A stretch of DNA of 46,015 bases from Candidatus Methylomirabilota bacterium (GCA_046726415.1 JBKPAK010000090.1:1-46015); one strand, 5' to 3'; counted from the stretch's first letter, positions 16,734 to 45,793 are shown. The notes: generated by a model from the letters alone, not told the origin. Translations and numbers: made by a program.

Positions 16734-17783
16734 TCAGTAGCCCATGGCTTCTCGGCGGAGATGCTGCGCCTGGTCGGCTCCCCGGGGCTCGTAGCGAGCG
16801 AGGTCCACGAACAGCTGAGGAAGTGACGTGACCCGCAGACCGCCCTTCTCGAGCAGTCCGTAGAACACGCCGACGTCGTACGGCGCCAAGAGGTGCAGCG
16901 TCCCGTCTGCCTCGGCCACGGGTCTCAGGCCCAGTCTGGCAGCCACTGGCGCGGGATCTCCCTCGAGGTACGCGTGCGCCGCCGTCATGCGCAGATGCGG
17001 CGCCACCAAAGACAGTCCGGCGCTCATCGTAAACGCGTAACGGCGTCCTTCCGCCTCAGCCGTGTGAGCCACCTCGACCTGGAACTTCCGGGTGATGCGC
17101 TCGGGAACCGCATAGGACGCGATGTCGTTCTCGCGATAGGTGTACGAATCGCTCCAGCTTTCCAGGAGGTCGGCCGGCTTGGTCAGCCGGAGCCGGTCGC
17201 TAGTATCCCGCTCGAGCCAGGCCAGCTCCTCGAGACGCTTCACGACATTGTGCGAATGTCCGAGGCTGATGTCCGCCGCCTTGGCCAATTCCCCCAATCG
17301 CCACGCCCGTCCGATCTCCGAGAGCAGAACGCGAACGACCCGCGTCGCGCGGGGCGCAAAGAGGGACCGGAGGGGCCGGGTGGAGGCGCCGATATTTCGC
17401 TTTCCTTCCTTCTCGATCAGGATGTTCTCGAGGGCGAGATAGCAGTTCCCCGACAGATCGATGTAGCCAAAATTGTGGGATTTCAAGATTCGAGCGCTCT
17501 CGGGGCCGATGTAGACAGCCGCTGCAGCTGGGTAAGCGGACGGCATCTCCCGGCGAAGCTCTGCCAGCCGAGTCACCGCGGCGCGGATCTGTCGAGGTTG
17601 GCCAAGGCTGCTGGCCTCAAGCACCACGGCGTGCTCCTGCTCGCCCACCCGAAATCTGACAAGCAAATTGGCGGTCTGGCGCCCAATTTTCGCATCGAAG
17701 CTCTCCTCCCAGCCTCGCGCCTTCGGGAACAGCTCGCGCAATCGCTGCGAGACTTGCGCCCGAATGTCTGGAAGTTTGAGCAT
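16734..17783 (-). CDS. AbiEi-like (DUF2186/AbiEi_2 type) type IV antitoxin or transcriptional regulator
   Basis: GYIDLSGNCYL, central wHTH (RAWRLGELAKAADISLGHSHNVVKRL), LLESW and C-terminal SLPQLFVDL...RGADQAQHL pattern; family recognised from memory. Confidence 0.75.
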   Translation of the reverse strand: MLKLPDIRAQVSQRLRELFPKARGWEESFDAKIGRQTANLLVRFRVGEQEHAVVLEASSLGQPRQIRAAVTRLAELRREMPSAYPAAAAVYIGPESARILKSHNFGYIDLSGNCYLALENILIEKEGKRNIGASTRPLRSLFAPRATRVVRVLLSEIGRAWRLGELAKAADISLGHSHNVVKRLEELAWLERDTSDRLRLTKPADLLESWSDSYTYRENDIASYAVPERITRKFQVEVAHTAEAEGRRYAFTMSAGLSLVAPHLRMTAAHAYLEGDPAPVAARLGLRPVAEADGTLHLLAPYDVGVFYGLLEKGGLRVTSLPQLFVDLARYEPRGADQAQHLRREAMGY

Positions 17784-32467: not shown

Positions 32468-33646
32468 CTAAACCTCGGCCCAGTGCCCCTCGTTGCCGAC
32501 GGTTTCCGCGACTTGAACGAGCCGAAAGGCAAAACGAGCGCCCCGTCCGAATCCGCTCTCGACCCAGATGCGCCCGCCGTGCGCCTCGATGACCCGTCGG
32601 CAGATCAGCAGACCCAGTCCGGTGCCGGACGCTCTCGAACGCCGCCCTTCCTCGGCCTGGCCGAAGCGCTCGAAAAGCAGCGGGATTTCTTCGGATGGGA
32701 TCCCCGGGCCAGAATCGGTGACAGACACTTCGATCTCGCCCTCGACGGAGCACACTCTCACGGCCACCGTGCCGCCCTTCGGGGTGAACTTCAGCGCGTT
32801 GCCCAGGAGGTTCATGAGCACTTGATCGAGACGTCCAGCGTCGCCGAGAACCCGCAGGGGCCGCTCGGTGCCCGAGACCTCGAGCGTGATGCCCCGACGG
32901 CTGGCGGCGGCGGCGAATCGCCCGGCCACACTGGCCACGAAGGCAGCAAGGTCCACTGGTCGGGGCTCGCCGACAAACCGGCCGGCGTCGATCTTGTACA
33001 GGTCGAGGATCTCCGAGAGAAGGCCGGCCATCTGGGTACAGCAGGCCTGCATGTTCCGCAGGTAACGGGCCTGGGCCTCGCGGCCTCCCCTCGGCCCGTC
33101 CTCGATCAGATCCAGATATCCCTGCACGACGGTGAGCGGCGTGCGCAGGTCATGCACGAGCATCGCCAGAAAGTCCACGCGGACGTCACCCAGGTCGCGC
33201 AGCAAGTGAGCTCGGCGGATCGCCCCCCAGACACGGGCGGCAACCAACGCGGATGATACCGGGCGGCAGATGTAATCGACCGCGCCTTCGCCAAGCGTGC
33301 GCTCCATGCTCTCCATGCTTGCCTCTTCCCCGCTCAGCACGATCACGGGAACGTGCCGGGTACGGGGATCCCTGCGCAGTCGGTCCAGGAGCACATCTCG
33401 GTGAAGCCCAGGGAGGCCGGCGTCGAGGAGGAGGCAATCGGGGCGGAGCGTCTGAGCGAGCACGACTCCCGTGCCGACATCGGCCACCTCGACCACCCGG
33501 CCGCGGGAATCCTCGACCAGATCGGCGAGCAGCGCGTGAACGCGGAGATCGTCGTGCATCACCAGAATGGTGGACGCTGGTTCGGGCCGCGCGGTCAGGC
33601 GAGGATCCTGCGGCTCGATGTCCGGACGGGTCTCGATATCGTTCAT
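32468..33646 (-). CDS. Cytoplasmic hybrid histidine kinase (receiver-HisKA-HATPase) with an atypical receiver
   Basis: Receiver PDCLLLDAGLP; H-box VHDLRTPL; N-box NLLGNALKF; G-boxes DSGPGI and GTGLGL; 4-nt overlap with the upstream kinase. Confidence 0.9.
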   Translation of the reverse strand: MNDIETRPDIEPQDPRLTARPEPASTILVMHDDLRVHALLADLVEDSRGRVVEVADVGTGVVLAQTLRPDCLLLDAGLPGLHRDVLLDRLRRDPRTRHVPVIVLSGEEASMESMERTLGEGAVDYICRPVSSALVAARVWGAIRRAHLLRDLGDVRVDFLAMLVHDLRTPLTVVQGYLDLIEDGPRGGREAQARYLRNMQACCTQMAGLLSEILDLYKIDAGRFVGEPRPVDLAAFVASVAGRFAAAASRRGITLEVSGTERPLRVLGDAGRLDQVLMNLLGNALKFTPKGGTVAVRVCSVEGEIEVSVTDSGPGIPSEEIPLLFERFGQAEEGRRSRASGTGLGLLICRRVIEAHGGRIWVESGFGRGARFAFRLVQVAETVGNEGHWAEV

Positions 33647-35532
33647 AGCACCTCGCGTGAGGGAGCGGGCGGGGTGGGAACGAGAGGGAGCAGAATCCGA
33701 AAGGTGGTACCCGCGCCGAGGGTGCTGCTCACCATGATGGACCCCCCGTGGTCCTCGATGATTTTGTGGGTCAGCGCTAGTCCGAGCCCGGTTCCGTTTT
33801 CCTTGGTGGTGAAGAACGGAGTGAAGATGCGGTCCATGGCGCCGGCCGGCATGCCGGAGCCGGTGTCGACGATCTCCACGCGCAGACGGGGGCCAGTGCG
33901 TCCACGCCGAGTTCCGAGGTCCGGTTCCCGCTCATCGCTCCAGCCCACGCGCAGGGTGAGCCAGCCCCCGCCTTCCATGGCGTCGAGCGCATTGGCCACG
34001 AGATTGACGAAGGCCCGATACAGCAGTTCCTCGTCGGCCTCAATCGGCAAGATGGTCGCGGCATACTCCCGGATCACCCGGACTCTCTGGGCGTCGATGC
34101 GGTGGCCGTACAACTCCACCGCCCGGTCGAGCAGGGCCGGCACGAGGATCGCGCCCGGGGTGAGACGTCCCGGGCGAGAGAGCTCGAGTAGGCGTTCCAC
34201 GATCCCGTTGATGCGCTCCAACTCGCGAGGCACGATGCTCTGGAACTTCTCGCGAAAGCCCGCGTCGTCGAAACGCCGCGTCAGGTGCCGCGTGAAGGTG
34301 AGCAGCGACGTCAGCGGGTTTTTGATCTCGTGAGCCAAACCGGCGGCCAAGGTGCCGACCGCGGCGAGCCGGTCGGAGCGCTCGAGCTGCCGCTGGAGCT
34401 CGCGGACGACCGTGAGATCGCGCAGGACTCCCACCACGCCGAGATCCTTGCCATCACCACCCTTGAGGGGAGCCACGCTGAACTCGATAGGCACTGAGGC
34501 CCCGTTCCGCCGAACGAGGGCCAAGGGAACTCCGGGCGCGTCGGAACGGCTGGCCAGGGTCTCCATGAGGATGTCGCCAATGATCGGACTATCCCGGAAT
34601 ACCTCGGTGCAGTAGCGGCCCGCCGTCTCTCCCGCGAAGAAGCCGGTCAGGAGCTCCGCCGCGGGGTTCAGGGTGACGACGCGGCCCTCCAGGTCGACGG
34701 TCACGATCCCCGTCTTCACACTGGCCAGGATGTTGTCGGTGTAGCTCTTGAGGTCAGCCAGCTCCTCGAAACGCTGACGCAGCTCGGCGTGCGCGACCTC
34801 CAGGGCTCTGCGCTGCTGGGCCAGCTGAGCCGCCATATGGTTGAACGCCACGGCGAGACGCCCGATCTCGTCGAGAGTCGTCGGCTCGATGCGGTGGCTG
34901 AGCTCACCGCGCGAGATCGCGGCCACCCCATCGGCGAGCCGCTGGACGGGCCGCGCGATGCGCCTGGCCACGAGGGCCGCGGCCAGTCCGCCCAACACGA
35001 TGGTCACCGCAGTGAGCGCCCCAAGCTCGAGGCGCGTCCTGAGGATCTCGCGCTCCATGCGTCGCTTGGAGAGCCCGACGCGCGCGGTGCCCCAGCGGCG
35101 GTTGTCCACGATCACGGGAACCGTGAAGTCATAGAGGCCCTCGCGATTGGCAGGGTCGCGCGTGTCCTGCACGAGCGGTTCCGGAGCCTGCACAGCCCGG
35201 TGATCTACCTCCGTGCCGAGGGAGCGGCCCACGGTCTCCGGATAGCGACTGTGCGCGGCGACACGCCCCTCGCCGTCCAGCACCAGGGCATAGACCACGT
35301 CCACTTCCCGCGCGATGTGGGCGGCATTTTGCTCGAGCCCGGTGAAGTTGTAGAGGAGAAGGTTGCCCGATGCCATGGCGGCCAGGTTCCGAGAGAGCAC
35401 CCGCCCCCGGGTCTTTACCTGGTCGACGATTGCCGCACTCTGTCGGTGCTCGACCACTGCGAATACCGCGGACATGACGAAGACGATCACCAGAATCGAG
35501 CCCCACAGGAACTTCGCGCGGAGGGAGGTCAT
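33643..35532 (-). CDS. Membrane sensor histidine kinase (TM-extracytoplasmic Cache-like domain-TM-HAMP-PAS-HisKA-HATPase), NtrB-like
   Basis: Two TM segments about 130 aa apart, HAMP (DEIGRLAVAFNHM), PAS (GIVTVDLEGRVVTLNPAA), AHEIKNPL, PFFTTK and GTGLGL; ATG 35532 overlaps the binding-protein stop. Confidence 0.92.
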   Translation of the reverse strand: MTSLRAKFLWGSILVIVFVMSAVFAVVEHRQSAAIVDQVKTRGRVLSRNLAAMASGNLLLYNFTGLEQNAAHIAREVDVVYALVLDGEGRVAAHSRYPETVGRSLGTEVDHRAVQAPEPLVQDTRDPANREGLYDFTVPVIVDNRRWGTARVGLSKRRMEREILRTRLELGALTAVTIVLGGLAAALVARRIARPVQRLADGVAAISRGELSHRIEPTTLDEIGRLAVAFNHMAAQLAQQRRALEVAHAELRQRFEELADLKSYTDNILASVKTGIVTVDLEGRVVTLNPAAELLTGFFAGETAGRYCTEVFRDSPIIGDILMETLASRSDAPGVPLALVRRNGASVPIEFSVAPLKGGDGKDLGVVGVLRDLTVVRELQRQLERSDRLAAVGTLAAGLAHEIKNPLTSLLTFTRHLTRRFDDAGFREKFQSIVPRELERINGIVERLLELSRPGRLTPGAILVPALLDRAVELYGHRIDAQRVRVIREYAATILPIEADEELLYRAFVNLVANALDAMEGGGWLTLRVGWSDEREPDLGTRRGRTGPRLRVEIVDTGSGMPAGAMDRIFTPFFTTKENGTGLGLALTHKIIEDHGGSIMVSSTLGAGTTFRILLPLVPTPPAPSREVL

Positions 35533-37157
35533 CGCGGGCCCTCCAGCCAGATCTTGCGCAGCGGGATGTACGGATCGCCCAGGCCGTTCACCTCGATGCT
35601 CCGCACGTAGGGCTGGAAGAGGCGTTCGTAGGTGTAGTGCCACATGGGAATGATCGGCACGTCGTCGATGATGATCTGTTCGGCGCGGCGGTACAGCTCC
35701 ATTCGGCGCGGAAGGTCATCCTCCTGGCGCGCACGGCTCAGCAGATCGTCCACCTGCGCGTTGGCATAACCGGTGACGTTGCGAGGGCTCTTCGAGAAAA
35801 ACAGCTTGGTGAGGAAGTTATCGGGGTCAGGCACGTCGGCGAACCACGCCTGCAGGAAGAAGGGAAGCTTGCCTTCGGCCAGCAGGCGCGCGAACGTGGG
35901 CCAGTCCGTCTCGTAGCGAACCTCGAGCGGCACGCCGATAGCGGCGAGGGCCGCCTTGATGGCCTGATGCTCGCGACTCAGCCGTTCGCTTCTGACGCTC
36001 GACCACAGGGTCAGTGGCGGGAACCTTCTGCCCTCTCCGTACCCGGCCTCGCGCAGCAGGGCCCGCGCCCGGTCCGGTGCGTACGGTAGGTCGCGCACCT
36101 GAGGGTTGAAGCCCGGTGTCCCCGGTGGAAGAATTCCACGGGCGGGATGATACCGCCTCATGAAAATGACATCGCGGATGCTGTCGCGATCGATCGCGGC
36201 CGCAATGGCCTCCCGGCAACGGCGGTCATCTAGGGGCTTCATCCGCGTATTGAAGCCATAGAACCGCACGCTGAACATAGGCCGCTTTACGTGTTGATAC
36301 GCTCCCGCTCGAGGGCGCGTTTCCGACGGCACCGGGCTGTCCTCGAGATGTCCGGCCTCGAACTCCCGGTAGATGACATCGATCGGCTCGCCCGGGAAGA
36401 TGCGATAGCGCACTTCCGACAAGCGAGGTGGTCCGGCAAAGTACTCGGGATTGGTTGCCAGAACGAGCTCTCGGCCACGGTCCCAACGAACGAACCTGAA
36501 GGGGCCCGTTCCGACCGGATGGTTCCCGAACTTTTCCCCCTGCCGCTCCACGAGGTCGCGAGGAACGATCTTCGCTTGGCCGACGGCGAGGAGAGAGACA
36601 AACGGTGTCAAGGCCTCGGTCAGCGCTACCTGCACCGTGTAGCGGTCGAGGACCGTGATTCCCGGCACAGAGGCCGCCTTTCCCTCGCGGAACGCGCGCC
36701 CCCCCTTGACACCACTGAAGAGGTCGGCGGCCTCCGACTTGACCCGTGGATCGAGCAGCCGGGTGAGCGAATACGCCACGTCGTCGGCAGTCATCTCACG
36801 CCCGTGGTGAAACGCCACGCCTCGGCGTAGGGTGAACGTCCAAGTGAGGCCATCCCGGGACGCCTTCCAGTACGTGGCCAGCGCCGGTGAGATCATGAGG
36901 TTCTGATCGAACTGGACCAGGCCGTCGAAGATCTGTTGGCTCACCGATCGGCTGTAGACATCGCTGATTCGGGCCGGATCCAGCGTGGCTGGCTCGTTTC
37001 CAAGCGGTCGGCGATAGACGCCTCCTCGGCTCGCTCCGTCCTCCTTGACTGTCTCTGCGCCCTGCCCCCACACCGCAACAGGGACAAGGAGCAGGGACAG
37101 TAGAAGGAGCGTAGGCGCGAGGAAGGGCGTGCGACCTCGTAGCGCCGATGAACCTAC
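35529..37157 (-). CDS. Family 5 (OppA/DppA-like) extracellular solute-binding protein; start codon uncertain
   Basis: EPATLDPA, IFDGLVQFD, WTFTLRRGVAFHHG, PVGTGPFRF and WFADVPDPDNFL motifs; signal-like stretch RGRTPFLAPTLLLLSLLLVPVAVWG. The 5' coordinate is approximate. Confidence 0.88.
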   Translation of the reverse strand, partial: VGSSALRGRTPFLAPTLLLLSLLLVPVAVWGQGAETVKEDGASRGGVYRRPLGNEPATLDPARISDVYSRSVSQQIFDGLVQFDQNLMISPALATYWKASRDGLTWTFTLRRGVAFHHGREMTADDVAYSLTRLLDPRVKSEAADLFSGVKGGRAFREGKAASVPGITVLDRYTVQVALTEALTPFVSLLAVGQAKIVPRDLVERQGEKFGNHPVGTGPFRFVRWDRGRELVLATNPEYFAGPPRLSEVRYRIFPGEPIDVIYREFEAGHLEDSPVPSETRPRAGAYQHVKRPMFSVRFYGFNTRMKPLDDRRCREAIAAAIDRDSIRDVIFMRRYHPARGILPPGTPGFNPQVRDLPYAPDRARALLREAGYGEGRRFPPLTLWSSVRSERLSREHQAIKAALAAIGVPLEVRYETDWPTFARLLAEGKLPFFLQAWFADVPDPDNFLTKLFFSKSPRNVTGYANAQVDDLLSRARQEDDLPRRMELYRRAEQIIIDDVPIIPMWHYTYERLFQPYVRSIEVNGLGDPYIPLRKIWLEGPR

Positions 37158-37291
37158 TCTCCGCCTCCGCCTGCATCGGCGTTGCCCACGGCAGCGAAGA
37201 GATTCAGTGAACTGAAGCTTCCGGATTCGACCACGGGAGCGACGAGCACGAAGGACGCGAGGACGAGAAGCACCGCCCAGAGCTTCGTCAT
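37154..37291 (-). CDS. Unannotated 45-aa secreted peptide precursor MTKLWAVLLVLASFVLVAPVVESGSFSSLNLFAAVGNADAGGGGE
   Basis: ATG 37291 to TAG 37154 translated by hand; SD GAGGAG 6 nt upstream; basic N-terminus plus about 17-aa hydrophobic core; first ORF after a sigma54 promoter. Too short to appear in the ORF track. Confidence 0.8.
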   Translation of the reverse strand: MTKLWAVLLVLASFVLVAPVVESGSFSSLNLFAAVGNADAGGGGE

Positions 37292-37367
37292 AGCTGTCTC
37301 CTCTCTGTTGTTGGGGGATCAGCGCCTTCCCACGGCGGGAGACGCATCTGAGCTGGTGGCCCAGTTC

Positions 37368-37383
37368 GGCAATAGCCCTGCCA
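37368..37383 (-). promoter_or_regulatory. Sigma54 (-24/-12) promoter
   Basis: Minus strand TGGCAGGGCTATTGCC versus consensus TGGCAC-N5-TTGC(A/T): GG and GC are exactly 10 nt apart. It lies just downstream of a sigma54 activator gene and about 75 nt upstream of the peptide ATG. Confidence 0.8.
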
Positions 37384-37553
37384 TCGCCTACCGCGAAAAG
37401 TGTTGGATTTTCAGAGACCCGAGAGTTCATCACGTGACCTCTCGCGCCCGCGCAGGGGCAGCCGGGCTCAGGTTGCGGGTCGAATGGTGTGGAAAGGCCC
37501 GATCGCACGGAGGGTTTCGCGCGCTGCCGCGAATCCGTGCACCGTGCACTGCT

Positions 37554-38978
37554 TCATACGTCCCCGCGGCTCGTGTCGTCTCGGCCGGCGGTGAGAAGGC
37601 CCCAGCGGGCGAGCTTGGCCTTGAGGACGTTGCGATGGAGGCCGAGGATACGCGCGGCTTCGCTCTGATTCCATCGAACGCGGTCCAGCACACGGCTGAC
37701 GATCTGCCGCTCGAACTCTTCGGTGGCCTCGCGAAGGGGAAGCATTTCCGCGTGATGCACCGCGTCACGCAAATCGGGCAGGAAGAGGTCGACGGGCAAG
37801 TCGTGGGCGCCGATGACCCCACCATCGACCAGCGCCACCGAACGCTCGACGATGTTCTGAAGCTCTCGGACGTTACCGGGCCAGGAGTACCTATGGAGCA
37901 CGGCCAGGGCCTCGGCGGACATCCCTTCGATCCTTTTGTTGAACGCGTTGTTGTAGCGGCGGATGAAGTGCTCGACGAGAAGGGGGATGTCTTCGCGGCG
38001 CTCGCGGAGGGGCGGCACCACGATGCGCACGACGTTGAGCCGATAGTAGAGATCCTCGCGGAAGCTGCCGCTGGCCACGGCGCGCCGCAAGTCGCTGTTG
38101 GTGGCCGCCAGAATCCGCACGTCGGTGCGGATGGGCCGAGAGCCCCCCACCCGCTCGATCTCTCGCTCCTGGAGCACGCGCAGCAGCTTCACTTGAAGCT
38201 CCGCCTTCAACGTGCCGATTTCGTCGAGGAACAGCGTGCCCCCTTCCGCCATCTCGAACTTGCCCGTCTTGCGCTGATGGGCACCGGTGAAGGCCCCCTT
38301 CTCGTGACCGAACAGTTCGGACTCCAAGAGCGTTTCCGGCATGGCCGCTGGGTTGATGGCCACAAACGGGCGATCGCGTCGGGGCCCCTGGCGGTGAATG
38401 GCCCTCGCCACCACTTCCTTGCCGGTCCCGCTCTCGCCCACGAGGAGGACGGTGGCGGTGGTGCGCCCCATCTGACCGATCAGCCGATAGAGCTTCTGCA
38501 TCTCCGGGTGCTGGCCCACCAGGGCATCGAAGTCGTGCTGGCGCGCCAGCTCCGACCGGAGGAACGCCACTTCGCGCTGGAGGGACTTCCGCTCCAGCGC
38601 GCGACGGACGACGGCCAGGAGCTCATCCTCGTCGAAGGGCTTGGTGAGATAGTCGAGAGCCCCGAGTTTCATGGCCGCCACTGCCGTGCGCACCGTTTTG
38701 ACCGCGGTGACGAGGACGACCTCGACCTGCTCGTCGACGGCCTTGATCTGTTCGAGAACCTGGATGCCATCCATGCCCGGGAGCTTGATGTCGAGGAGGA
38801 CCAGGTCGATCCGGGCGCGCCGGAGGGCCTCCAGGGCTTCGGGACCGCTGGGCGCGTCGAGGACCTCGTGGTCATCCTCGAGGATCAGCCGGAAGGATTC
38901 GCGCAGGCCAGGATCGTCGTCCACGACGAGGACGACCGGCCGCAGGAGACTACTCTCGGCGCGAATCTCGCTGACCAT
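37554..38978 (-). CDS. Sigma54-dependent response regulator (NtrC/AtoC family)
   Basis: Receiver (VVDDD, LLDIKLP, YLTKP), GESGTGKE, ELFGHEKGAFTGA, LFLDEI, WPGNVREL and Fis-type HTH (NQSEAARILGLHR). Confidence 0.96.
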   Translation of the reverse strand: MVSEIRAESSLLRPVVLVVDDDPGLRESFRLILEDDHEVLDAPSGPEALEALRRARIDLVLLDIKLPGMDGIQVLEQIKAVDEQVEVVLVTAVKTVRTAVAAMKLGALDYLTKPFDEDELLAVVRRALERKSLQREVAFLRSELARQHDFDALVGQHPEMQKLYRLIGQMGRTTATVLLVGESGTGKEVVARAIHRQGPRRDRPFVAINPAAMPETLLESELFGHEKGAFTGAHQRKTGKFEMAEGGTLFLDEIGTLKAELQVKLLRVLQEREIERVGGSRPIRTDVRILAATNSDLRRAVASGSFREDLYYRLNVVRIVVPPLRERREDIPLLVEHFIRRYNNAFNKRIEGMSAEALAVLHRYSWPGNVRELQNIVERSVALVDGGVIGAHDLPVDLFLPDLRDAVHHAEMLPLREATEEFERQIVSRVLDRVRWNQSEAARILGLHRNVLKAKLARWGLLTAGRDDTSRGDV

Positions 38979-38990
38979 CGTGCGACCGCT

Positions 38991-40541
38991 CTACCGGGCA
39001 CCTCCGGCGGCACCGTCGGCCGACACCGAGTCGAGGCGATGAAACCCGCTCGGATGGAGCCGCAGTCCTCTCACGTCGGGACGGACGACCGCCCACTGCA
39101 GGCGCACGTAGACAGGCACCCAAAGGAGTTCCTCGGCGAGCATCGCTTGGGCGCGCTGATAGAGGCGCTGGCGCTCGGGGCGAAAGGACAGCTGGCTGGC
39201 GCGGACCAGCACGTCGTCGAGCGTGGCCTGACGCGACAACGAGTACGTTTCGGGACGGGGCATCCGCTGTCGCCCCTCGCTCGTAGACAGCGGATAGAGG
39301 AGAAAATGGGGGTCACCGCCCAGCACGACCGCCTCCGCCAGCACCATCTCGCTGTCGCCACCCGGCACCCGCGAGCGAGGTCCGTCCGGAAGCTCAGTCC
39401 GAACTTGGACGGGAATGTCGACAGCACTGAGCGAGGCCACTACGGTGTCAGCGACCCGCCGGAGATCGAGAACCTCGCTAGGCGGAATGCTCAGGGTGGC
39501 CTTGTGACCTCGGGGCCAGCCACCGTCGACGAGGAGCTTCTTGGCCGCTTGCCGATGCCCGGCCAGGATGGGAGACCCCTCCCGGCGAGCCCATACACCG
39601 GAAGGCAGGAAGGACTGCAGGGGAATGGCATTCCGCGCTAGGGCCGCGCCCAGGGCGGCTGGGTCGATGCCAGTCGCCACCGCCTGCCGGATCTTCTTCC
39701 GGGCGAACGGATCGCGCTCGGTCTGGAAGGCGAGGTAGCCCACGCGGATCCCCGGAATCGACAGCGCCCCCTCGCTCCGGCGGGGCGGGTCGTTCGGAAA
39801 CCACACATCCAGGGCTTGGGCGTCGAGGTCGGCCTCGGCGCGGTCGTCGCTCCCGACGTCGAGGATTACGATGCGTTCGGCGCGGGGCGCGACCGCCCAG
39901 TGACCAGCCTGCGCCTCGAGCACGACACGCCCCGGAGTAGTCTCCGCGATGCGATAGGGTCCGGTGCCAATGAGACGCGAAGCGCCATCCGCCCCGGCCC
40001 CCACTCTCACGACGCCGAAGCCCGGATGGGCGAGCACGGTCAGCAGCACGGCATACGGCTGAACCAGCAGGAACTGAACGGTTCGGGCGTCGGCCGCTCT
40101 CACCTCTTTGATGACCCCAGGGACGCCGCGCAAGAGGGCGGCCCACACGGGTCGGGATGGCGCCCCCCCGCCTTCGGCGCGAAGCTGTCGGGCAAAACTC
40201 TCGGCGACCTCTGCCGCCGTCAGCGGCGTGCCGTCGTGAAAACGAACGCCTTCGCGGATGGTGAACGACCACGTGAGGCCGTCACGGGACACGCTCCAGC
40301 GAACCGCAAGGGCGGGGTCGATATCGGTCGAGGTTGGCGCGTAGGCCACCAACGTCTCGAACACCTGGCGAGCCACGAGGGGGACCGCGCCCGAGAGACC
40401 GGTCGCGGGATCGAGTTCGGTCGGGAGACCTGGGATACCCACGCGAAGCTCACGGCGCGTCTGGGCGGCAGACTCGGTCAGAAATGCGGCAGAAATGAGC
40501 AGAAGTAGACCTACGATCGCACCCCAGCGGCCCTGCAGCAT
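38991..40541 (-). CDS. Second family 5 extracellular solute-binding protein
   Basis: Signal peptide ending ESAA-Q; LPTELDPA, VFETLVAY, WSFTIREGVRFHDGTPLTA and IGTGPYRI motifs. Confidence 0.9.
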   Translation of the reverse strand: MLQGRWGAIVGLLLLISAAFLTESAAQTRRELRVGIPGLPTELDPATGLSGAVPLVARQVFETLVAYAPTSTDIDPALAVRWSVSRDGLTWSFTIREGVRFHDGTPLTAAEVAESFARQLRAEGGGAPSRPVWAALLRGVPGVIKEVRAADARTVQFLLVQPYAVLLTVLAHPGFGVVRVGAGADGASRLIGTGPYRIAETTPGRVVLEAQAGHWAVAPRAERIVILDVGSDDRAEADLDAQALDVWFPNDPPRRSEGALSIPGIRVGYLAFQTERDPFARKKIRQAVATGIDPAALGAALARNAIPLQSFLPSGVWARREGSPILAGHRQAAKKLLVDGGWPRGHKATLSIPPSEVLDLRRVADTVVASLSAVDIPVQVRTELPDGPRSRVPGGDSEMVLAEAVVLGGDPHFLLYPLSTSEGRQRMPRPETYSLSRQATLDDVLVRASQLSFRPERQRLYQRAQAMLAEELLWVPVYVRLQWAVVRPDVRGLRLHPSGFHRLDSVSADGAAGGAR

Positions 40542-40814: not shown

Positions 40815-42674
40815 GTGGACGACGGCCCACGAGGGAGTCACGAGAGAGGATGGGCTATGAAGGAGTTCGAGAAGAAGGGTAGCCCGGGTCGCGAGGGGCT
40901 CTCCAAGTTCCTGCCCGCATCAATGTCGGACGCTAGCACACGCCGCCGGCTGACCGAGTACGAGATCCAGGTCCAGGACCTCCAGGCTTACGTGCGCTCG
41001 CTAGAGGCAGAGACGGTCCACCTCCGGAAGAAGATCGAGGACTCCCCCAAGGAGTTCATGATCATCGAGAACAAGCTGCGCGAGGCCAATCGCCAGCTCG
41101 TGCAGGCGTTCAATCAGAACGAGAAGCTCGTCAACGCCCTCTACGAGGCGCGGGAGCAGATCACCTCCCTGAAGGAAGAGGTGGACAAGCTGTGCGCGCC
41201 GCCGTCGACGTACGGGGTGTATTTGTCGGTCAACGAGGACGGGACGGTGAATATTCTGGCCCAGGGGCGCAAGGTGAAGGTGAACCTGCACCCCGCGATC
41301 AAGGTGGAGGCGTTGAAGCCCGGGCAGGAGCTGATCCTGAACGAGGGGCTGAATGTCGTGGAGGCGGCCGGCTACGAGATCCAGGGCGAGGTCGTGATCT
41401 TGAAGGAGCAGCTGGACGAGGAGCGCGCGGTAGTGACCCTGCGGGCGGATGAGGACCGGGTGGGGATCATCGCCGACCCGCTGCGGACCCTGCGCCTGAA
41501 GGTGGGCGACCACATCCTGATGGACGCCAAGTCGGGCTACTTGCTGGAGCGGCTGCCCAAGAGCGAAGTGGAGGATCTGTCGCTGGAGGAAGTGCCGGAC
41601 ATCAGCTACGACGACATCGGCGGGTTGAGCACCCAGATCGAGTCGATCAAGGATGCGGTGGAGCTGCCGTATCTGTACGCCGACTACTACAAGGAGCACC
41701 AGCTGACGCCGCCCAAGGGGGTGCTGTTGTATGGGCCGCCGGGCTGCGGCAAGACGATGATTGCCAAGGCGGTGGCCAACAATCTGGCCGAGAAAATCTC
41801 GGAAAAGCGCGGGGAGAAGATCAAGGGGTACTTCCTGAACATCAAGGGGCCGGAGCTGCTGAACAAGTACGTGGGGGAGACCGAGCGGAAGATTCGCGAG
41901 ATCTTCACCAAGGCCAAGGAAAAGGCGGCCGACGACGTGCCGGTGGTGGTGTTCTTCGACGAGATGGACGCGCTGTTCCGGACGCGGGGGACGGGGATCT
42001 CCTCGGATGTGGAGACGACCATCGTGCCGCAGCTGTTGGCGGAGATCGACGGGGTGGAGGGGCTGAAGAACGTCATCGTGATCGGGGCCTCGAACCGGCA
42101 GGACCTGATCGACCCGGCCATTCTGCGGCCGGGACGGCTGGACGTGAAGATCAAGATCGAGCGGCCGGACAAAGGCGCGGCCACCGACATCTTCCTGAAG
42201 TACCTGACGCCGGCCATCCCCATTGCCGCCACGGAGACGCGGCAGCACGGGGGGGCCGCGGCCGCGGCCATCACGGCGATGATCAGTGGCACGGTGGAGG
42301 CGATGTACGCGCTGTCCGAGGAGAACCGGTTCCTGGAGGTGACGTATGCCAACGGGGACAAGGAGGTGCTGTACTTCAAGGACTTCTCCTCGGGGGCGAT
42401 GATCGAGTCGGTGGTGCGGCGGGCCAAGAAGCTGGCCCTGAAGCGGTACATCGGGGCGGGCGAGAAAGGGATCCGGCTGGACGATCTGCTGACCGCCGTG
42501 CGCGAGGAATTCAAGGAGAACGAGGACCTGCCCAACACCACCAACCCCGACGACTGGGCCAAGATCGCCGGCAAGAAGGGCGAGCGGATCGTCTACGTCA
42601 AGCCCCTGATGGGCGAAGCCAAGGAAAAGCAGCGCAGCGTGGAGCGCGTCGTCAACACCGGCCAGTATCTCTAA
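40815..42674 (+). CDS. arc: Proteasome-associated AAA+ ATPase (ARC/Mpa)
   Basis: N-terminal coiled coil, [43 protein letters not shown] and C-terminal GQYL gate-opening motif. Confidence 0.96.
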
Positions 42675-42681
42675 TTAATTG

Positions 42682-42702
42682 GGGGGGACGCCGCGTCCCC
42701 CC
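42682..42702. repeat. GC-rich intergenic hairpin (REP-like or terminator)
   Basis: GGGGGGACG-CCG-CGTCCCCCC immediately after the arc stop. Confidence 0.5.
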
Positions 42703-42772
42703 TGAGCCCCCCGGCTCGCGCGCGGAGCGACGTCCCGGGGGGTTCCTTTCTGCAGACAGTGATGAGGGGCGC

Positions 42773-44269
42773 ATGGCCATCCCGAAAGTCATGGGCATCG
42801 AGACCGAGTACGGCATCATCGTCAGGAATCAGCCTGACTTCAATCCGATCCTGTCCTCTCTGCTCCTGATCAACTCCTACGAGACGTATCGCTCGTCGCG
42901 GATCCGCTGGGACTACGAGGCCGAGAGCCCCCTGCGCGATGCGCGGGGGTTCGAATACATGGAGGAGAAGGAGGGGCCGTCGAAGGAGGAATCGCGGCTC
43001 ATCAACCTCATCCTCTCCAACGGCGCGCGCTTCTACGTGGATCACGCGCATCCCGAGTACTCGAGTCCCGAGACGACGAACCCTCGGGACCTCGTCATCT
43101 GGGATCGAGCGGGTGAACGCATTCTCAACCTGGCCCGACAACGGGCGGAAGCCGTCTCCCCGCCGGAACAGCGCATCCTGATCCACAAGAACAACACCGA
43201 CGGGAAGGGCAACTCGTACGGCACCCACGAGAACTACCTGATGGACCGCCGCGTGCCCTTCGCCCGCATCGTGCAGCACATGATGCCGTTCTTTGCAACG
43301 CGGCAGATCTTCACCGGTTCGGGCAAGGTGGGAGCGGAGAACGGGACGGAGCCCTGCGACTATCAGATCTCGCAGCGGGCCGATTTCCTGGAAACGGAGG
43401 TGGGACTGGAAACCATGCACTCCCGCCCCATCATCAACACTCGCGACGAGCCTCATGCCGACCCCGAGAAGTACCGGCGGCTGCATGTCATCGTGGGCGA
43501 TGCCAACATGAGCGAGGTGACCAACTACTTGAAGACGGGCACCATGGCCATCGTGCTCAGCCTGGTCGAGGACGACGCCATCGATGCGGACTTTTCGCTG
43601 GACAATCCGGTAGCCACCTATCGCGCGGTCTCCCGCGATCTCACGTGCCGCGAACCCGTTCGTCTGAAGGACGGCCGCACCATCAGCCCCATCGATCTCC
43701 AACGGGAGTTTCTGGCCCTGGCCCACCAGTACTACCGGAGCCGCGAGCACGAGGCTTGGGTGCAGGATGTTCTCGCCCGCTGGGAGCGCGTGCTCGACCA
43801 CCTGGCCGAAGATCCTATGCAGCTCGGGCGTGAGCTGGACTGGGTCATCAAGTACCAGCTCATCGACAACTACACGGCCAAGCACGACTTGGAGTGGAAC
43901 GACTCCCGTGCGCAGATGATCGACCTCCAGTACCACGACATCCGTCCCGGCCGGGGGCTCTACTACAAGCTGGAGGAAGCGGAGGCGGTGGAACGAATGG
44001 TCACCGATGACGAGATCTCCAAGGCCATCTACGATCCACCCAAGGATACGCGCGCCTACTTTCGCGGCATGTGTTTGCAGCGCTACGCGGACGAGATCGT
44101 CTCGGCGAGCTGGGACTCGGTAATCTTCGATCTCAAGGAAGGGCCGCTGAAGAAGATTTTCATGCTGGAACCCCTGCGGGGCACGGAGGCGCACGTCCGT
44201 CAGCTCCTCACCGAGTCGCCCACCGCGAGCGCGCTCCTCAAGAACATCTCCTCCAAGACCACTCCCTGA
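42773..44269 (+). CDS. dop: Depupylase/deamidase Dop
   Basis: GIETEYGI, NGARFYVDHAHPEYSSPE (Dop-type rather than PafA-type), KNNTDGKGNSYGTHENY, RPIINTRDEPHAD, DLQYHD and TRAYFRG. Confidence 0.92.
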   Translation: MAIPKVMGIETEYGIIVRNQPDFNPILSSLLLINSYETYRSSRIRWDYEAESPLRDARGFEYMEEKEGPSKEESRLINLILSNGARFYVDHAHPEYSSPETTNPRDLVIWDRAGERILNLARQRAEAVSPPEQRILIHKNNTDGKGNSYGTHENYLMDRRVPFARIVQHMMPFFATRQIFTGSGKVGAENGTEPCDYQISQRADFLETEVGLETMHSRPIINTRDEPHADPEKYRRLHVIVGDANMSEVTNYLKTGTMAIVLSLVEDDAIDADFSLDNPVATYRAVSRDLTCREPVRLKDGRTISPIDLQREFLALAHQYYRSREHEAWVQDVLARWERVLDHLAEDPMQLGRELDWVIKYQLIDNYTAKHDLEWNDSRAQMIDLQYHDIRPGRGLYYKLEEAEAVERMVTDDEISKAIYDPPKDTRAYFRGMCLQRYADEIVSASWDSVIFDLKEGPLKKIFMLEPLRGTEAHVRQLLTESPTASALLKNISSKTTP

Positions 44270-45097
44270 GTGGCTATGAACGATCGCGGGGGAAATGACC
44301 GCTGGCTCGGCGTGTTTCACGACTACGCCACGTCAAGCTTCCTCGACGTGCTGCGCCGCGACGCCCCCCAGCTCCTGCCGGAATCCATGCCCCTCACCGC
44401 CGGGGCTGCGTCCGAGGTGCCGCACGGCACCACCGTGATCGCCCTTCGCTACCGCGAAGGCGTCATCATGGCTGGCGATCGCCAAGCCACCGCGGGGTTC
44501 CAGGTAGCGAGTCGGCGCATGGAGAAGATCTTCAAGTCCGACGAGCTGTCCGGGGTGGGAATCGCCGGCGCCGCCGGACCGGCCATGGAGATGGCCAAGC
44601 TCTTCCAGACCGAGCTCGAGCACTACGAGAAGGTGGAGGGGGAAAACCTCTCCTTGGAGGGCAAGGCCAATCGCCTGGGCCAGATGGTGCGGTTGAACCT
44701 GCCGGCCGCCCTGCAGGGACTGGTGGTGGTCCCCATCTTCGCCGGGTTCGACGAAAAGGCGGCGGTCGGGCGGCTGTTCAAGTACGACGTGACCGGCGGA
44801 CGCTACGAGGAGACCAACTACGACGCGCAGGGCTCCGGATCAAAGGACGCCCGCGACTCGCTCAAGAAGCTCTGGCGCCGCGACCTCTCTCGCGAGGAGG
44901 GATTGCGGGTCGCCCTCGAGGCCCTTTGGGACGCGGCGGACGAGGACGTGGGCACGGGCGGTCCCGACCTCGTACGGGGCATCTTCCCGACCGTGAAGAC
45001 GATCACCCGCGAGGGATTTACCGAAGTGTCGGAGGAGGATATTCGCCGCATCTACGACGTCATCTTGGCTGATCGGCGTAAGCACGAGGAGGCCTGA
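44270..45097 (+). CDS. prcB: 20S proteasome beta subunit
   Basis: Propeptide ending PHG/TTVIAL (N-terminal Thr nucleophile), MAGDRQAT, ELEHYEKVEG and GSGS. Confidence 0.96.
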   Translation: MAMNDRGGNDRWLGVFHDYATSSFLDVLRRDAPQLLPESMPLTAGAASEVPHGTTVIALRYREGVIMAGDRQATAGFQVASRRMEKIFKSDELSGVGIAGAAGPAMEMAKLFQTELEHYEKVEGENLSLEGKANRLGQMVRLNLPAALQGLVVVPIFAGFDEKAAVGRLFKYDVTGGRYEETNYDAQGSGSKDARDSLKKLWRRDLSREEGLRVALEALWDAADEDVGTGGPDLVRGIFPTVKTITREGFTEVSEEDIRRIYDVILADRRKHEEA

Positions 45098-45100
45098 GGC

Positions 45101-45793
45101 ATGCCGCTGCCGTACTACGTGAGCCCCGAGCAGATGATGAAGGACAAGGCGGAGTATGCCCGCAAGGGCATCTCCCGGGGCCGCTCCATCGTCGTGCTCG
45201 AGCATCAGGACGGCATCCTCCTCGTGGCCGAGAACCCCTCGACGTTGCTCCACAAGATCTCCGAGATCTACGACCGCATCGCCTTCGCCGGCGTGGGCAA
45301 GTACAACGAGTTCGAAAACCTTCGCATTGCGGGGATCCGCCACGCCGACGTCAAGGGATACTCCTACAGCCGGGGCGACGTCACCGCCAAAGCCCTGGCC
45401 AACGCCTACTCGCAAGCCCTCGGCAATATCTTCACCCAGGACATCAAACCGTTCGAGGTGGAGGTCTTGGTGGCCGAAGTGGCCCACGGAAATGGGACGC
45501 GCAGCGAGATGTATCACATCCTCTACGACGGGACGATCGAGGATGAGCGCAATTTCGCGGCCATGGGGGGTCAGGCTGACGACATTCGGCGCTTCCTACG
45601 CGACAACTACCGCGAGAACCTCCTGTTGGCCGAGGCCCTTCAACTCGGCGTGCGCGCCCTCACCGTGACCCAGAACAAGTCGCTCAGCGAGAAGGACCTG
45701 GAGGTGGCGGTGCTCGACCGCACGCGACCCCGCCGAACGTTCCGCCGCATCAGCGCCGAGCAGCTCGGTTCCCTGCTGGACACCACCCGCTAG
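45101..45793 (+). CDS. prcA: 20S proteasome alpha subunit
   Basis: YYVSPEQMMKDKAEYARKGISRGRS, KISEIYDRI, GYSYSRGDV and LEVAVLDR. Confidence 0.96.
   Translation: MPLPYYVSPEQMMKDKAEYARKGISRGRSIVVLEHQDGILLVAENPSTLLHKISEIYDRIAFAGVGKYNEFENLRIAGIRHADVKGYSYSRGDVTAKALANAYSQALGNIFTQDIKPFEVEVLVAEVAHGNGTRSEMYHILYDGTIEDERNFAAMGGQADDIRRFLRDNYRENLLLAEALQLGVRALTVTQNKSLSEKDLEVAVLDRTRPRRTFRRISAEQLGSLLDTTR

Follow-up and report, generated by a model that had tools for sequence, protein, structure and literature searches.

A conserved gene cassette of Rokubacteria with the layout of a candidate self-made-peptide sensing circuit

The window analyzed in this work is a 46,015-nt stretch of DNA from Candidatus Methylomirabilota bacterium (GCA_046726415.1 JBKPAK010000090.1:1-46015), which carries a cassette on its minus strand at positions 32468..40541. 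In minus-strand order, with protein domains assigned by Pfam, the cassette comprises a solute-binding protein (SBP1), an NtrC-type activator, a -24/-12 promoter, a 45-aa open reading frame (ORF) with a predicted export signal, a second solute-binding protein (SBP2), a Cache-HAMP-PAS kinase, and a receiver-kinase protein (Table 1). An earlier note on this DNA had described the same arrangement, and its domains, promoter, and ORF were all found on the minus strand. Two further observations of that note were reproduced: the last three genes are coupled by 4-nt overlaps (ATGA at 35532-35529 between SBP2 and the kinase, and at 33646-33643 between the kinase and the receiver-kinase), and the window lacks an ABC permease or ATPase, neither domain being detected by Pfam in the 40 ORFs scanned. 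SBP1 lies 12 nt upstream of the activator gene and is 29% identical to SBP2.

Table 1. Features of the cassette, with positions counted from the first letter of the window
Feature	Position	Strand	Evidence
SBP1, family-5 solute-binding protein	38991..40541	-	Pfam SBP_bac_5, E 4.5e-57
NtrC/AtoC-type sigma-54 enhancer-binding response regulator (REC, AAA+, Fis-type HTH)	37554..38978	-	Pfam Response_reg + Sigma54_activat + HTH_8, E 1e-71
Two adjacent GTGCAC hexamers, likely enhancer (UAS)	37537..37549	-	sequence reading, orthologue half-site clusters
Sigma-54 promoter TGGCAGGGCTATTGCC, -24 GG / -12 GC	37368..37383	-	motif and conservation
Putative exported-peptide precursor, 45 aa, MTKLWAVLLVLASFVLVAPVVESGSFSSLNLFAAVGNADAGGGGE	37154..37291	-	no Pfam or NCBIfam family
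Long RNA hairpin	37021..37125	-	folding versus shuffles
SBP2, orphan OppA/DppA-like family-5 binding protein	35529..37157	-	Pfam SBP_bac_5, E 1.4e-82
Membrane histidine kinase, sCache_3_2 + HAMP + PAS + HisKA + HATPase_c	33643..35532	-	Pfam
Soluble receiver-HisKA-HATPase protein, fifth operon gene	32468..33646	-	Pfam Response_reg + HisKA + HATPase_c

With more than 100 related genomes sharing it, the cassette arrangement is far beyond chance. In the orthologous loci of Rokubacteria, the conserved core consists of the activator, the promoter, one to five copies of the peptide gene, SBP2, and the kinase. Counts were restricted to loci with room, that is, those whose sequence extends far enough for the gene in question; among 74 peptide-seeded loci, 59 of 60 have SBP2 downstream of the peptide, 48 of 50 have the kinase, and 56 of 59 have the activator on the upstream side. 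The short ORF with a predicted signal peptide, proposed in the earlier note to recur upstream of orthologous SBP2-kinase pairs, was found in all 30 loci seeded with SBP2. The same gene order is kept in a divergent order of the same class, where the peptide has diverged and SBP2 shows about 53% identity; the system is absent from whole genera of the family (g48, 0/10; g50, 0/21). Such strict linkage of peptide, SBP2, kinase, and activator argues for a single sensing cassette.

The two outermost genes, both listed in the earlier note, lie outside the conserved core. Only 1 of 18 wider loci, in a genome of the same genus, has a homologue of SBP1 preceding the activator, and SBP1 is a genus-confined accessory. 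The receiver-first kinase also recurs in 1 of 18 wider loci, and the receiver-kinase form in the fifth slot is genus-specific: among the 43 loci scanned, the ORF after the kinase encodes a kinase-receiver hybrid (23 loci), a lone receiver (13), or a HATPase domain only (2), with none or another product in the remaining 5.

The promoter TGGCAGGGCTATTGCC is located 92 nt before the ATG of the 45-aa ORF and has the GG at -24, the GC at -12, the fixed spacing, and the conservation in orthologues that characterize sigma-54 promoters. Its recurrence, likewise anticipated, was confirmed: 68 of 69 loci have the motif TGGY-N7-TTGC 62-113 nt before the start of their first peptide copy, compared with a background of 0.024 per 150 nt, and the motif is restricted to that copy, being found before 0 of 15 later copies of tandem arrays. 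A pair of GTGCAC hexamers stands directly 3' of the activator stop codon, and clusters of at least three TGCAC/GTGCA half sites are present in 28 of 68 orthologous promoter regions, compared with 1.1% of random 190-nt windows; these clusters are likely the binding sites of the activator. The best NCBIfam match of the activator is AtoC (E 9e-145), and LuxO is also among its matches (E 7e-105), both below cut-off. The genome possesses two rpoN genes (two Sigma54_DBD matches above cut-off), and an AAA+ sigma-54 activator, upstream binding sites predicted from sequence, and rpoN are found together in it. Of the 494 promoter-like motifs in this genome, three have a cluster of at least three half sites upstream, the cassette promoter among them; the other two (contigs C227 and C277) seemed intragenic, and neither another convincing target promoter nor an output beyond the loop itself emerged from this genome-wide scan, which is a crude search for regulon members that would miss variant sites. 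A hairpin in the 5' UTR (CCCTC ... GAGGG), noticed by eye in many orthologues, was discarded as not significant in the window (z -0.21).

The 45-aa ORF is preceded by a Shine-Dalgarno stretch, GAGAGGAG, and begins with M-T-K followed by an 18-residue hydrophobic run; a signal-peptidase site is predicted after V-E-S, cleavage at which would yield a 22-aa acidic peptide. Orthologous precursors are 43-48 aa long with a predicted mature part of about 16-22 aa, which has a net charge of -1 to -3 in 118 of 119 sequences, is cysteine-free in 117 of 119, and contains a core, F-x-x-[IV]-G-x-A-[DE]-G-G-G, that is nearly invariant across the phylum. The invariant residues of the precursor in the orthologue alignment are A18, P19, E22, G36, and A38, and the conserved mature residues alternate (F32, A34, G36, A38), as would be expected of a strand bound in extended form. 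The gene is single-copy in its own genome and is under purifying selection (median dN/dS of 0.28 over 223 pairs); this value, the Shine-Dalgarno stretch, and the fixed length point to a product that is translated and constrained. Tandem amplification to up to 5 copies per locus fits a product needed in bulk. The precursor matches no Pfam family (E up to 0.001) and no NCBIfam model (E up to 10), a large protein database holds 1784 relatives (clusters), all unnamed or 'hypothetical', and the ESM Atlas returned unnamed clusters only, the best score of 0.89 being under the 0.9 level. With this many clusters and no family model, the peptide family is missed by current annotation.

Features expected of an export signal are preserved widely: all clades share K3, a hydrophobic run of 18-22 residues, P at -5, I/V at -3, and S at -1. 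The motif I-E/D-S with a proline 4-5 residues before it persists in all three clades, divergent ones included, and fits the usual rule for a signal-peptidase I site. In the annotated loci, the cassette contains no gene for a processing protease or exporter, and a Sec-exported peptide of about 2 kDa would presumably reach only the periplasm of a bacterium presumed to be diderm, which lends no support to the cell-to-cell pheromone role suggested in the earlier note. The possibility that the small ORF is the leader of SBP2 split off by a frameshift was rejected: SBP2 has a second in-frame hydrophobic leader, and most of its orthologues have an ATG of their own behind the peptide stop. Contigs of run X2, which may be the source sample, span 37072-37382 without insertion or deletion and with a single synonymous C>T at 37116.

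SBP2 belongs to the peptide branch of family 5, as indicated by its SBP_bac_5 domain, its nearest relatives, which are peptide binders, and an aligned acidic residue. The closest solved structures are the peptide-binding protein 8upi (E 2.8e-68) and DppA (1dpp, E 1.6e-50), with MppA, OppA, and PrgZ (E 1e-28) among the further PDB matches; the best NCBIfam matches are DppA, GsiB, and OppA, all far below their equivalog cut-offs. In phmmer alignments, the D of the conserved A-W-F-A-D of SBP2 aligns with D408 of DppA, and the R of S-S-V-R aligns, in a gappy stretch, with R355; these two DppA residues presumably hold the two ends of the peptide, the acidic one holding the N-terminal amine. Orthologues of SBP2 share 54-75% identity across the order. 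Its nearest paralogues (37-41% identity) adjoin pairs of BPD_transp_1 permeases in 3 of 3 loci checked, and the SBP2 clade thus appears to have left a transporter context that these paralogues have kept. Apparent fusions of binding-protein and kinase genes among the same paralogues were dismissed, the long 'open frames' being high-GC artefacts at ordinary SBP genes beside two permeases.

The ATG of most SBP2 orthologues lies 7-63 nt after the peptide stop codon. In the window, no in-frame ATG, GTG, or TTG is found between the peptide stop and the hydrophobic leader of SBP2, and the first in-frame candidate start, a GTG at about 37079, would remove the leader; the receptor may therefore be poorly made in the window. 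The long RNA hairpin (MFE of -68.5 kcal/mol, z -2.53; 4 of 200 shuffles fold as well) lies after the peptide stop and before the mature part of SBP2, and it overlaps the leader-coding region. Rfam gave only chance miRNA and IRES matches, far below gathering scores, and the miRNA-precursor ones coincide with this hairpin.

The kinase is predicted to contain a first transmembrane segment at about residues 8-27, a periplasmic sCache_3_2 domain at about 28-168, and then a second transmembrane segment followed by HAMP, PAS, HisKA, and HATPase domains; with a window of 19, its hydropathy is highest at residues 4-13 and 168-175, and its best NCBIfam match is AtoS (E 3e-100, below cut-off). A periplasmic binding protein is conserved beside a kinase with a periplasmic sensor domain, with no permease gene in the window or in the annotated loci.

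The relation between the peptide and SBP2 was addressed by co-folding and by covariation. A co-fold of SBP2 with peptide residues 15-45 gave a median ipSAE of 0.40 (runs of 0.02, 0.40, and 0.70), compared with 0.02 for the best of three controls, with a partner pLDDT of at least 37 and at least 63% shared contacts. Of 80 solved complexes used for calibration, 58 reached the mark, only 7 of the 80 with scores of at most 0.60, and of 110 mismatched pairs 2 did; the model may also have memorized solved OppA-peptide complexes. The peptide binding postulated in the earlier note passes weakly, with one of the three runs at 0.02. The processed acidic peptide of about 20 aa is most likely the ligand of SBP2. 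Covariation of peptide and binding protein, also postulated there, did not materialize at the level of whole-protein mirror-trees: over 39 loci, the partial correlation between the mature peptide and SBP2 was -0.16 given the activator and -0.11 given the cytoplasmic part of the kinase, and that between the mature peptide and the kinase sensor was 0.06 and 0.02.

The reading that we favour, tentatively and at slightly under an even chance, is a self-contained, autoregulated sensing cassette, in which the peptide is bound by SBP2 and the signal passes via the kinase to the activator and back onto the peptide operon. The activator would be transcribed on its own; once phosphorylated, it would bind the TGCAC-type sites immediately behind its stop codon and fire the sigma-54 promoter, from which the peptide gene or genes, SBP2, the Cache kinase, and the receiver or hybrid kinase would be expressed as one operon. 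We infer that Sec exports the 43-48-aa precursor, that cleavage after I-E/D-S releases the acidic peptide of about 16-22 aa, and that this peptide serves as the ligand of SBP2. Liganded SBP2 would then signal to the periplasmic Cache domain in the way known for LuxP, TorT, AioX, and the Vibrio chitin-binding protein with their kinases, and the kinase, if paired with this activator, would set its phosphorylation and so close the loop; the induced fifth gene may provide a branch to other outputs. Of the feedback loop proposed earlier, the wiring onto the peptide operon is well supported, because the promoter motif recurs (68/69) and the likely activator sites lie just upstream, and the closing step, peptide binding by SBP2, is weakly suggested by the co-fold. 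Counting against this reading are the negative mirror-tree result, a hydrophobic N-terminus that would suit a membrane anchor equally well, the lack of a protease or exporter gene in the annotated cassettes, the missing canonical start codon before the SBP2 leader in the window, the lack of a further convincing target promoter in the crude genome scan, and the absence of the system from whole genera of the family.

In a more specific and rather unlikely form, the unmodified, Sec-exported ribosomal peptide would be a shared autoinducer of Rokubacteria, read in the periplasm by SBP2 and amplified through the kinase and the activator. Such a system would perform quorum- or confinement-sensing in diderms, with the receiver or hybrid kinase as the exit to downstream behaviour.

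The alternatives differ in what they make of the peptide. It may be a regulated product only, in which case SBP2 and the kinase would sense an outside cue (peptides or another small solute), and the secreted acidic, glycine-rich peptide would act elsewhere, on the surface or matrix, on metals or minerals, or by interference with neighbours, with no feedback on the sensor. Two-component operons commonly autoregulate along with their target genes, the peptide gene, in some loci multi-copy, comes first behind the sole promoter of the cassette, and the lack of covariation with SBP2 or the sensor domain counts in the same direction. We nevertheless consider this explanation unlikely: the short, anionic, and nearly cysteine-free mature part is unlike cationic or amphipathic antimicrobial peptides, no linked immunity, exporter, or modification gene was seen in the annotated loci, and both the invariable adjacency to a peptide-binding protein and the weak co-fold pass would become coincidence.

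Alternatively, the peptide might resemble MgrB, that is, remain uncleaved as a single-pass inner-membrane protein with its N-terminus in and its C-terminus out, whose periplasmic tail of about 20 residues, and possibly also its helix, contacts the kinase directly or together with SBP2 and damps or boosts it after induction, the input of SBP2 being something else, such as environmental oligopeptides. The 18-22 hydrophobic residues nearly span a membrane and are long enough for an anchor. Conservation of the C-terminal half of this segment (S-F-L-L-V-A-P-V) equals that of the mature part (mean distances of 0.347 and 0.344), this half and the P-x-x-E motif are invariant or nearly so, and the signal part evolves no faster than the tail, so that length and conservation fit a membrane anchor as well as a cleaved signal. 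The near-invariance of the core across the phylum, unlike that of diversifying pheromones, and the control of the gene by the system that it would regulate speak for the same idea; mgrB, likewise, is controlled by PhoP. Against these points stand the signal-peptidase-I-like motif with its proline kept in three clades, arrays of up to 5 copies, which are odd for a stoichiometric regulator, the lack of a Pfam match to MgrB or any small-protein family, and the constant next-gene peptide-binding protein, which would be left unexplained; we regard this explanation as improbable, too.

Cache domains usually bind ligands themselves, and the kinase could sense its ligand in this way if SBP2 were the transport protein of an Opp/Dpp permease encoded elsewhere and owed its place in the kinase operon to co-regulation. 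Although the genome contains about 100 family-5 look-alike stretches, so that spare permeases may exist, and the Vibrio chitin-binding protein both transports and signals according to a review (PMC8050422), this is very improbable given that in 48 of 50 loci with room the SBP2 orthologue is accompanied by the kinase, the two genes often overlapping or closely spaced, and that SBP2 orthologues never adjoin permeases in annotated loci, as the nearest paralogues do.

A full-text literature search, judged by titles and abstract openings, revealed no published description of the cassette, and the autoregulated sensing cassette appears to be a so far undescribed means by which bacteria with two membranes sense a self-made peptide. 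If true, it would offer a first handle on cell signalling in Rokubacteria, a large uncultured soil phylum, and in its shared-autoinducer form it would represent a route distinct from Agr/Com (direct kinase binding) and RRNPP (import). Its parts are few and all of known kinds, and the idea is therefore testable by reconstitution in a cultivable rpoN+ host.

Several known systems were compared with the cassette. For ribosomally made and modified peptides (RiPPs; geopeptide TIGR04229, YcaO-TfuA), there was neither a precursor-family match nor, in the annotated loci, a linked maturase or radical-SAM gene; YcaO, TfuA, and an FG-GAP protein upstream of the activator were seen in one genome only (L042, the same as L093) and are absent from the other loci L040-L131 and from the genome of the window, and this reading was dropped. 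MgrB-PhoQ, as well as SafA and MzrA, share with the peptide gene a product of less than 50 aa that combines a single hydrophobic helix with a short tail in the periplasm and is controlled by the system on which it could act; mgrB lies outside the kinase operon and is not known to be tandemly amplified or to have a binding-protein partner, and, with no Pfam family in common, the likeness is functional only.

Closer in logic are the systems with binding-protein co-receptors. In LuxP-LuxQ-(LuxU)-LuxO, a binding protein beside a kinase serves as co-receptor for a self-made signal, and the pathway ends in a sigma-54 response regulator; unlike SBP2, LuxP comes from a different family of binding proteins and recognizes a furanosyl borate rather than a peptide, the signal synthase is encoded outside the operon, a phosphotransfer protein stands between kinase and regulator, and LuxO acts on small-RNA genes rather than on the operon of the signal (see also PMC8895600). 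AioX-AioS-AioR, listed in the table of the review mentioned above (PMC8050422), follows the same three-part logic as the cassette, with a binding protein, a kinase, and an NtrC-type sigma-54 activator together and AioX lacking a transporter. However, AioX, a member of the phosphonate-binding family, recognizes arsenite, which comes from outside, and the Aio system encodes no ligand gene and targets the arsenite oxidase operon. Within family 5, the same review lists the chitin-binding protein with ChiS in Vibrio and DppA with Tap in E. coli, the latter with peptides, as proteins signalling to membrane sensors (PMC8050422). In contrast to SBP2, both have environmental ligands and serve ABC transporters as well. 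ChiS has no sigma-54 activator paired with it in this manner, and Tap is a chemoreceptor.

The Gram-positive systems Agr, ComCDE, ComQXPA, and RRNPP/Phr resemble the cassette in that a ribosomal precursor is encoded with the sensor and induces its own operon, and in Phr, PrgZ, and Opp-dependent systems a family-5 protein handles the pheromone, PrgZ being a solved relative of SBP2. Agr and Com peptides bind the membrane domain of the kinase directly and need dedicated processing and export genes, whereas the cassette has no exporter or protease gene, a periplasmic Cache kinase, and a sigma-54 activator as its regulator. RRNPP peptides enter the cell through Opp and bind receptors in the cytoplasm, whereas no permease, ATPase, or TPR receptor was found in the window or in the annotated orthologous loci, and the host is presumably diderm. 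Peptide signalling through two-component systems is textbook knowledge in Gram-positives, by direct kinase binding or by import, and Gram-negative binding-protein co-receptors are, to our knowledge, known for non-peptide or environmental ligands. If true, a cassette in which a kinase and a sigma-54 activator are encoded together with an orphan peptide-binding protein and an exported peptide of its own would join both worlds.

The arrangement described in the earlier note was confirmed in full by Pfam searches and inspection of the sequence: the gene order, the sigma-54 promoter motif, the small open reading frame (ORF) and the gene overlaps are all present, and no ABC permease or ATPase was found among the 40 window ORFs scanned against Pfam. 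The small ORF has a ribosome-binding stretch, GAGAGGAG, and encodes the peptide MTKLWAVLLVLASFVLVAPVVESGSFSSLNLFAAVGNADAGGGGE. ATGA overlaps link the gene for the second binding protein (SBP2) to the kinase gene, and the latter to the receiver-kinase gene. Two hydrophobic stretches of the kinase, at about residues 8-27 and 170-190, flank its Cache domain, so the sensor, spanning about residues 28-168, is predicted to be periplasmic.

Features of the cassette and its neighbors in the window
Feature	Position	Strand	Source
SBP1, family-5 binding protein	38991-40541	minus	Pfam
Activator: receiver, sigma-54-interaction and Fis-HTH domains	37554-38978	minus	Pfam
Two GTGCAC hexamers, immediately past the activator stop	37549-37537	minus	
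Sigma-54 promoter motif TGGCAGGGCTATTGCC	37383-37368	minus	
Small ORF, 45 aa, without family	37154-37291	minus	Pfam
SBP2, family-5 binding protein	35529-37157	minus	Pfam
Kinase: sCache_3_2, HAMP, PAS, HisKA, HATPase	33643-35532	minus	Pfam
Receiver-HisKA-HATPase protein	32468-33646	minus	Pfam

The window has a high GC content (63-71%), and sigma-54 is encoded twice in its genome. The flanking genes are housekeeping genes: ruvC, yebC, a thioesterase gene, secDF, tgt, queA, relA/spoT, recG and a Pup-proteasome cluster. This cluster (40815-45793, plus strand) encodes a proteasomal AAA ATPase of the Mpa/ARC type, a Pup ligase/deamidase family protein (42773-44269) and two proteasome subunits; a 549-aa minus-strand ORF at 42671-44320 is the shadow of the Pup-ligase gene. 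Positions 1-4143 (plus strand) encode a very large protein of more than 1368 aa, open at the window start, with pentapeptide repeats and NHL/teneurin-NHL repeats. At 16734-17783 (minus strand), beside unannotated ORFs, lies an ORF with a weak AbiEi antitoxin-like domain (E 4.6e-07), around which, at 16-22 kb, the GC content dips to 0.63-0.65.

Conservation of the cassette was assessed from both of its ends. A search of 60 related genomes with SBP2 yielded orthologues of 54-75% identity; 30 loci were fetched, and a homologous small ORF lies directly 5' of SBP2 in all 30 (in 27 under a stricter first filter, and in 29/29 without L029, the locus from the unpublished genome G025). A search with a pattern derived from the peptide alignment, with one genome per species, gave 74 loci; the label is Rokubacteria or Methylomirabilota for nearly all of them. 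Where the contig extends far enough, the activator lies 5' of the peptide in 56/59 of these peptide-seeded loci, SBP2 lies 3' in 59/60, and the kinase comes next in 48/50. Among the exceptions, L068 lacks an activator match and L071 an activator or kinase match; L131, a weak partial peptide match on a contig labelled Bryobacteraceae, has no other cassette part.

Across the phylum, with the unpublished genomes G025 and G135 counted in, the peptide is present in 118 of 251 genomes (54 of the 104 of high quality). By family, it was found in 90/158 genomes of f1, the genera g48 (0/10) and g50 (0/21) being among those without it, in 19/21 of f4, 5/21 of f7, 0/15 of f8 and 0/20 of f13. Family f7, which belongs to the same class but lies outside the window's order, keeps the order of activator, peptide (1-3 copies), SBP2 (about 53% identity) and kinase. 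Such cassettes with a diverged peptide, found beyond the order but still within the class (L138-L143, from genus g61 of f7 and from f12), help define the minimal conserved core.

The flanking housekeeping genes recur together with SBP1 and the receiver-first kinase in a same-genus genome only (1 of 18 wider loci), and neither SBP1 nor this kinase belongs to the conserved core. The slot 3' of the kinase is almost always filled by a two-component protein: the 43 ORFs scanned there comprise 13 lone receivers, 23 kinase-receiver hybrids, 2 proteins with HATPase only, 4 without family and 1 amidohydrolase, and five further loci have no ORF of at least 100 aa in this slot. Neighbors outside the cassette vary by genome (Liv-type ABC genes, ABC-F, RecQ, Mg-chelatase-like and others). 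Past the kinase end, 4/7 annotated loci have a Liv-type branched-chain amino-acid ABC operon, convergent with the kinase in L041 and L042, and downstream of it on the strand opposite to the cassette in L051 and L055; this proximity may be synteny only. Genes for TfuA, YcaO and an FG-GAP repeat protein directly 5' of the activator in L042 (11896-15746; the same locus as L093) were set aside, as they occur in one genome only and have no link with the cassette in other genomes.

The peptide orthologues are 41-54 aa long, and the gene has a median dN/dS of 0.28 over 223 same-length gene pairs, which argues that the small ORF is translated and constrained. Residues A18, P19, E22, G36 and A38 are invariant in 47 sequences (similarly with 57), and M1, L15, V20, S23, F32 and A34 are conserved in at least 90% of the 47. 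No match to Pfam or NCBIfam models was found. Of 8000 candidates scored from a large protein collection, 1784 are relatives at E up to 0.001; the best 120 are all unnamed or 'hypothetical', the named ones coming from Rokubacteria or Methylomirabilales. In 119 of these 120, A-P lies 17 residues from the start. The segment that follows I-E-S in them is 19-24 residues long, begins with G-T and has a net charge of -1 to -3 (each in 118/119), is cysteine-free in 117/119 and contains F-x-[AST]-x-G-x-A in 119/119. The diverged f7 peptide has a hydrophobic leader followed by P-A-M-E-I-D-S-S-T-Q-V-F-S-R-V-G-M-A-E-G-G-G-G. All clades keep I-[ED]-S preceded at a short distance by a proline, which fits a candidate signal-peptidase I site by the -3/-1 rule for such sites. 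In the window's precursor, the predicted mature peptide corresponds to residues 24-45. Only one copy is present in the window's genome (E 2e-22; the next match has E 3.8), and one genus carries 2-5 tandem copies ending in G-N-A-C-D-G-G-G-G-G-W.

In 68 of 69 loci a TGGY-N7-TTGC motif stands 62-113 nt (mode 89) 5' of the start codon of the first peptide gene, against a background of 0.024 per 150 nt, and it precedes none of 15 later tandem copies; the exception, L071, has partial copies farther upstream. Thus the small ORF and the sigma-54 motif both recur ahead of binding protein-kinase pairs, as the earlier note had expected. Between the activator stop and the promoter, at least three TGCAC/GTGCA half sites occur in 28/68 regions (1.1% of random windows) and at least two in 42/68 (4.4%), and related palindromes were seen by eye in other loci. 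A crude scan of the window's genome gave no convincing second target promoter for the activator. The best NCBIfam matches of kinase and activator are the AtoS/AtoC pair, in line with a cognate pair. It is well supported by these sequence comparisons that the activator, through the nearby sites, would act on the sigma-54 promoter of one operon comprising the peptide(s), SBP2, the kinase and the receiver or hybrid. A short 5' UTR hairpin (C-C-C-T-C A-T-G-G-G G-A-G-G-G) recurs upstream of the Shine-Dalgarno stretch, e.g., in L058, L062 and L070, with a G-C-rich equivalent in genus g40; in the window itself it is not significant (z -0.21).

By both family and structure, the best matches of SBP2 are peptide binders: DppA, GsiB and OppA in NCBIfam, all far under the equivalog cut-offs, and 8upi (E 2.8e-68) and DppA (E 1.6e-50) in the PDB. 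In phmmer alignments, the D of the conserved A-W-F-A-D of SBP2 stands opposite DppA D408, and the R of S-S-V-R opposite R355, the latter in a gappy stretch; in DppA these two residues are taken to hold the peptide ligand at its two ends. The nearest paralogues (37-41% identity) adjoin two BPD_transp_1 permeases in 3/3 loci checked, which suggests that the SBP2 clade has left a transporter context. About 100 stretches resembling family-5 binding proteins are scattered over many contigs of the 7.6-Mb genome, a large family expansion.

The reading frame of SBP2 extends without a stop from far upstream and includes a typical leader (R-G-R-T-P-F-L-A-P-T-L-L-L-L-S-L-L-L-V-P-V-A-V-W-G), with no ATG, GTG or TTG in any frame between the peptide stop and this leader (37079-37157, minus strand); the first canonical start is a GTG at about 37079, within the leader. 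In most orthologues an ATG lies 7-63 nt past the peptide stop; a well-placed start is also missing from L063 (first only at +120) and from L088, L111 and L127 (none). Public contigs over 37072-37382 carry no insertion or deletion, the sequencing run behind them possibly being the source sample. SBP2 translation in the window may rely on a rare start codon or on translational coupling. Right after the peptide gene, over the leader-coding region, lies a long, stable RNA hairpin (37125-37021, minus strand; -68.5 kcal/mol, z -2.5), which may govern how much peptide is made relative to SBP2. The start codon of SBP2 in L058 is itself enclosed in a hairpin (A-T-G-A-G-G-A-A-A-G-G-G-G-G ... C-C-C-C-C-T-T-C-C-T-C-A-T).

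We propose, as a possibility that falls somewhat short of probable, that the exported and processed peptide is the ligand of SBP2, which relays to the Cache domain of the kinase. The activator, bound at the nearby sites, would fire the operon promoter; the peptide would be exported, processed and bound by SBP2; and the relay from the loaded SBP2 to the kinase would close the loop, with positive or negative feedback. This reading is favored by the fact that an exported peptide and an orphan peptide-binding protein are invariably encoded side by side, by the alternating conserved peptide residues, as expected of a strand bound in extended form, by the tandem amplification of the peptide gene and by a weak co-folding pass. 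SBP2 with the peptide gave a median ipSAE of 0.40 against 0.02 for the best of three controls, with a partner pLDDT of at least 37 and at least 63% of contacts common between runs, but one run scored 0.02 (the others 0.40 and 0.70). In calibration, the mark was reached by 58/80 solved complexes and 2/110 mismatched pairs; since only 7 of those 80 complexes scored at or below 0.60, a pass in that range is correct less often than not, unless the pairing was likely from the start, and the model may remember solved OppA-peptide complexes.

The covariation of peptide and binding protein predicted in the earlier note did not appear in a whole-protein mirror-tree analysis of 39 loci, whose power is low because whole proteins are compared with a 20-residue peptide. 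The mature peptide displayed no excess co-evolution with SBP2 (partial r -0.16 given the activator, p 0.95; -0.11 given the cytoplasmic part of the kinase) or with the kinase sensor (0.06 and 0.02), and little covariation is expected of a peptide core that is nearly invariant. That the peptide is solely a regulated product of the circuit is a serious rival, though an unlikely one. A membrane-anchored, MgrB-like feedback regulator, likewise improbable, has to be taken seriously because the hydrophobic N-terminus of the precursor is long and its second half is conserved as much as the tail. Peptide binding by SBP2 is a plausible mechanism, and a role as a cell-to-cell pheromone, as first suggested, is unsupported so far; after export by Sec, a peptide of roughly 2 kDa would stay in the periplasm, the organism being a presumed diderm.

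A literature search at the level of titles and abstract openings returned no description of a system that encodes its own exported peptide alongside an orphan family-5 protein, with a kinase and a sigma-54 activator as the other parts. The three-part scheme of the cassette, with a kinase between binding protein and sigma-54 activator, is also that of AioXSR and, more loosely, LuxPQ-LuxO. Family-5 co-receptors, as proposed for SBP2, include DppA with Tap, AibA with TlpB and the chitin-binding protein with ChiS (review PMC8050422). In Gram-positive bacteria, self-induced precursor peptides operate with kinases, and the peptide is either taken up by the cell or bound directly by the kinase (PMC8895600). 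The cassette would unite two known kinds of system, binding-protein-dependent two-component sensing and peptide autoinduction.
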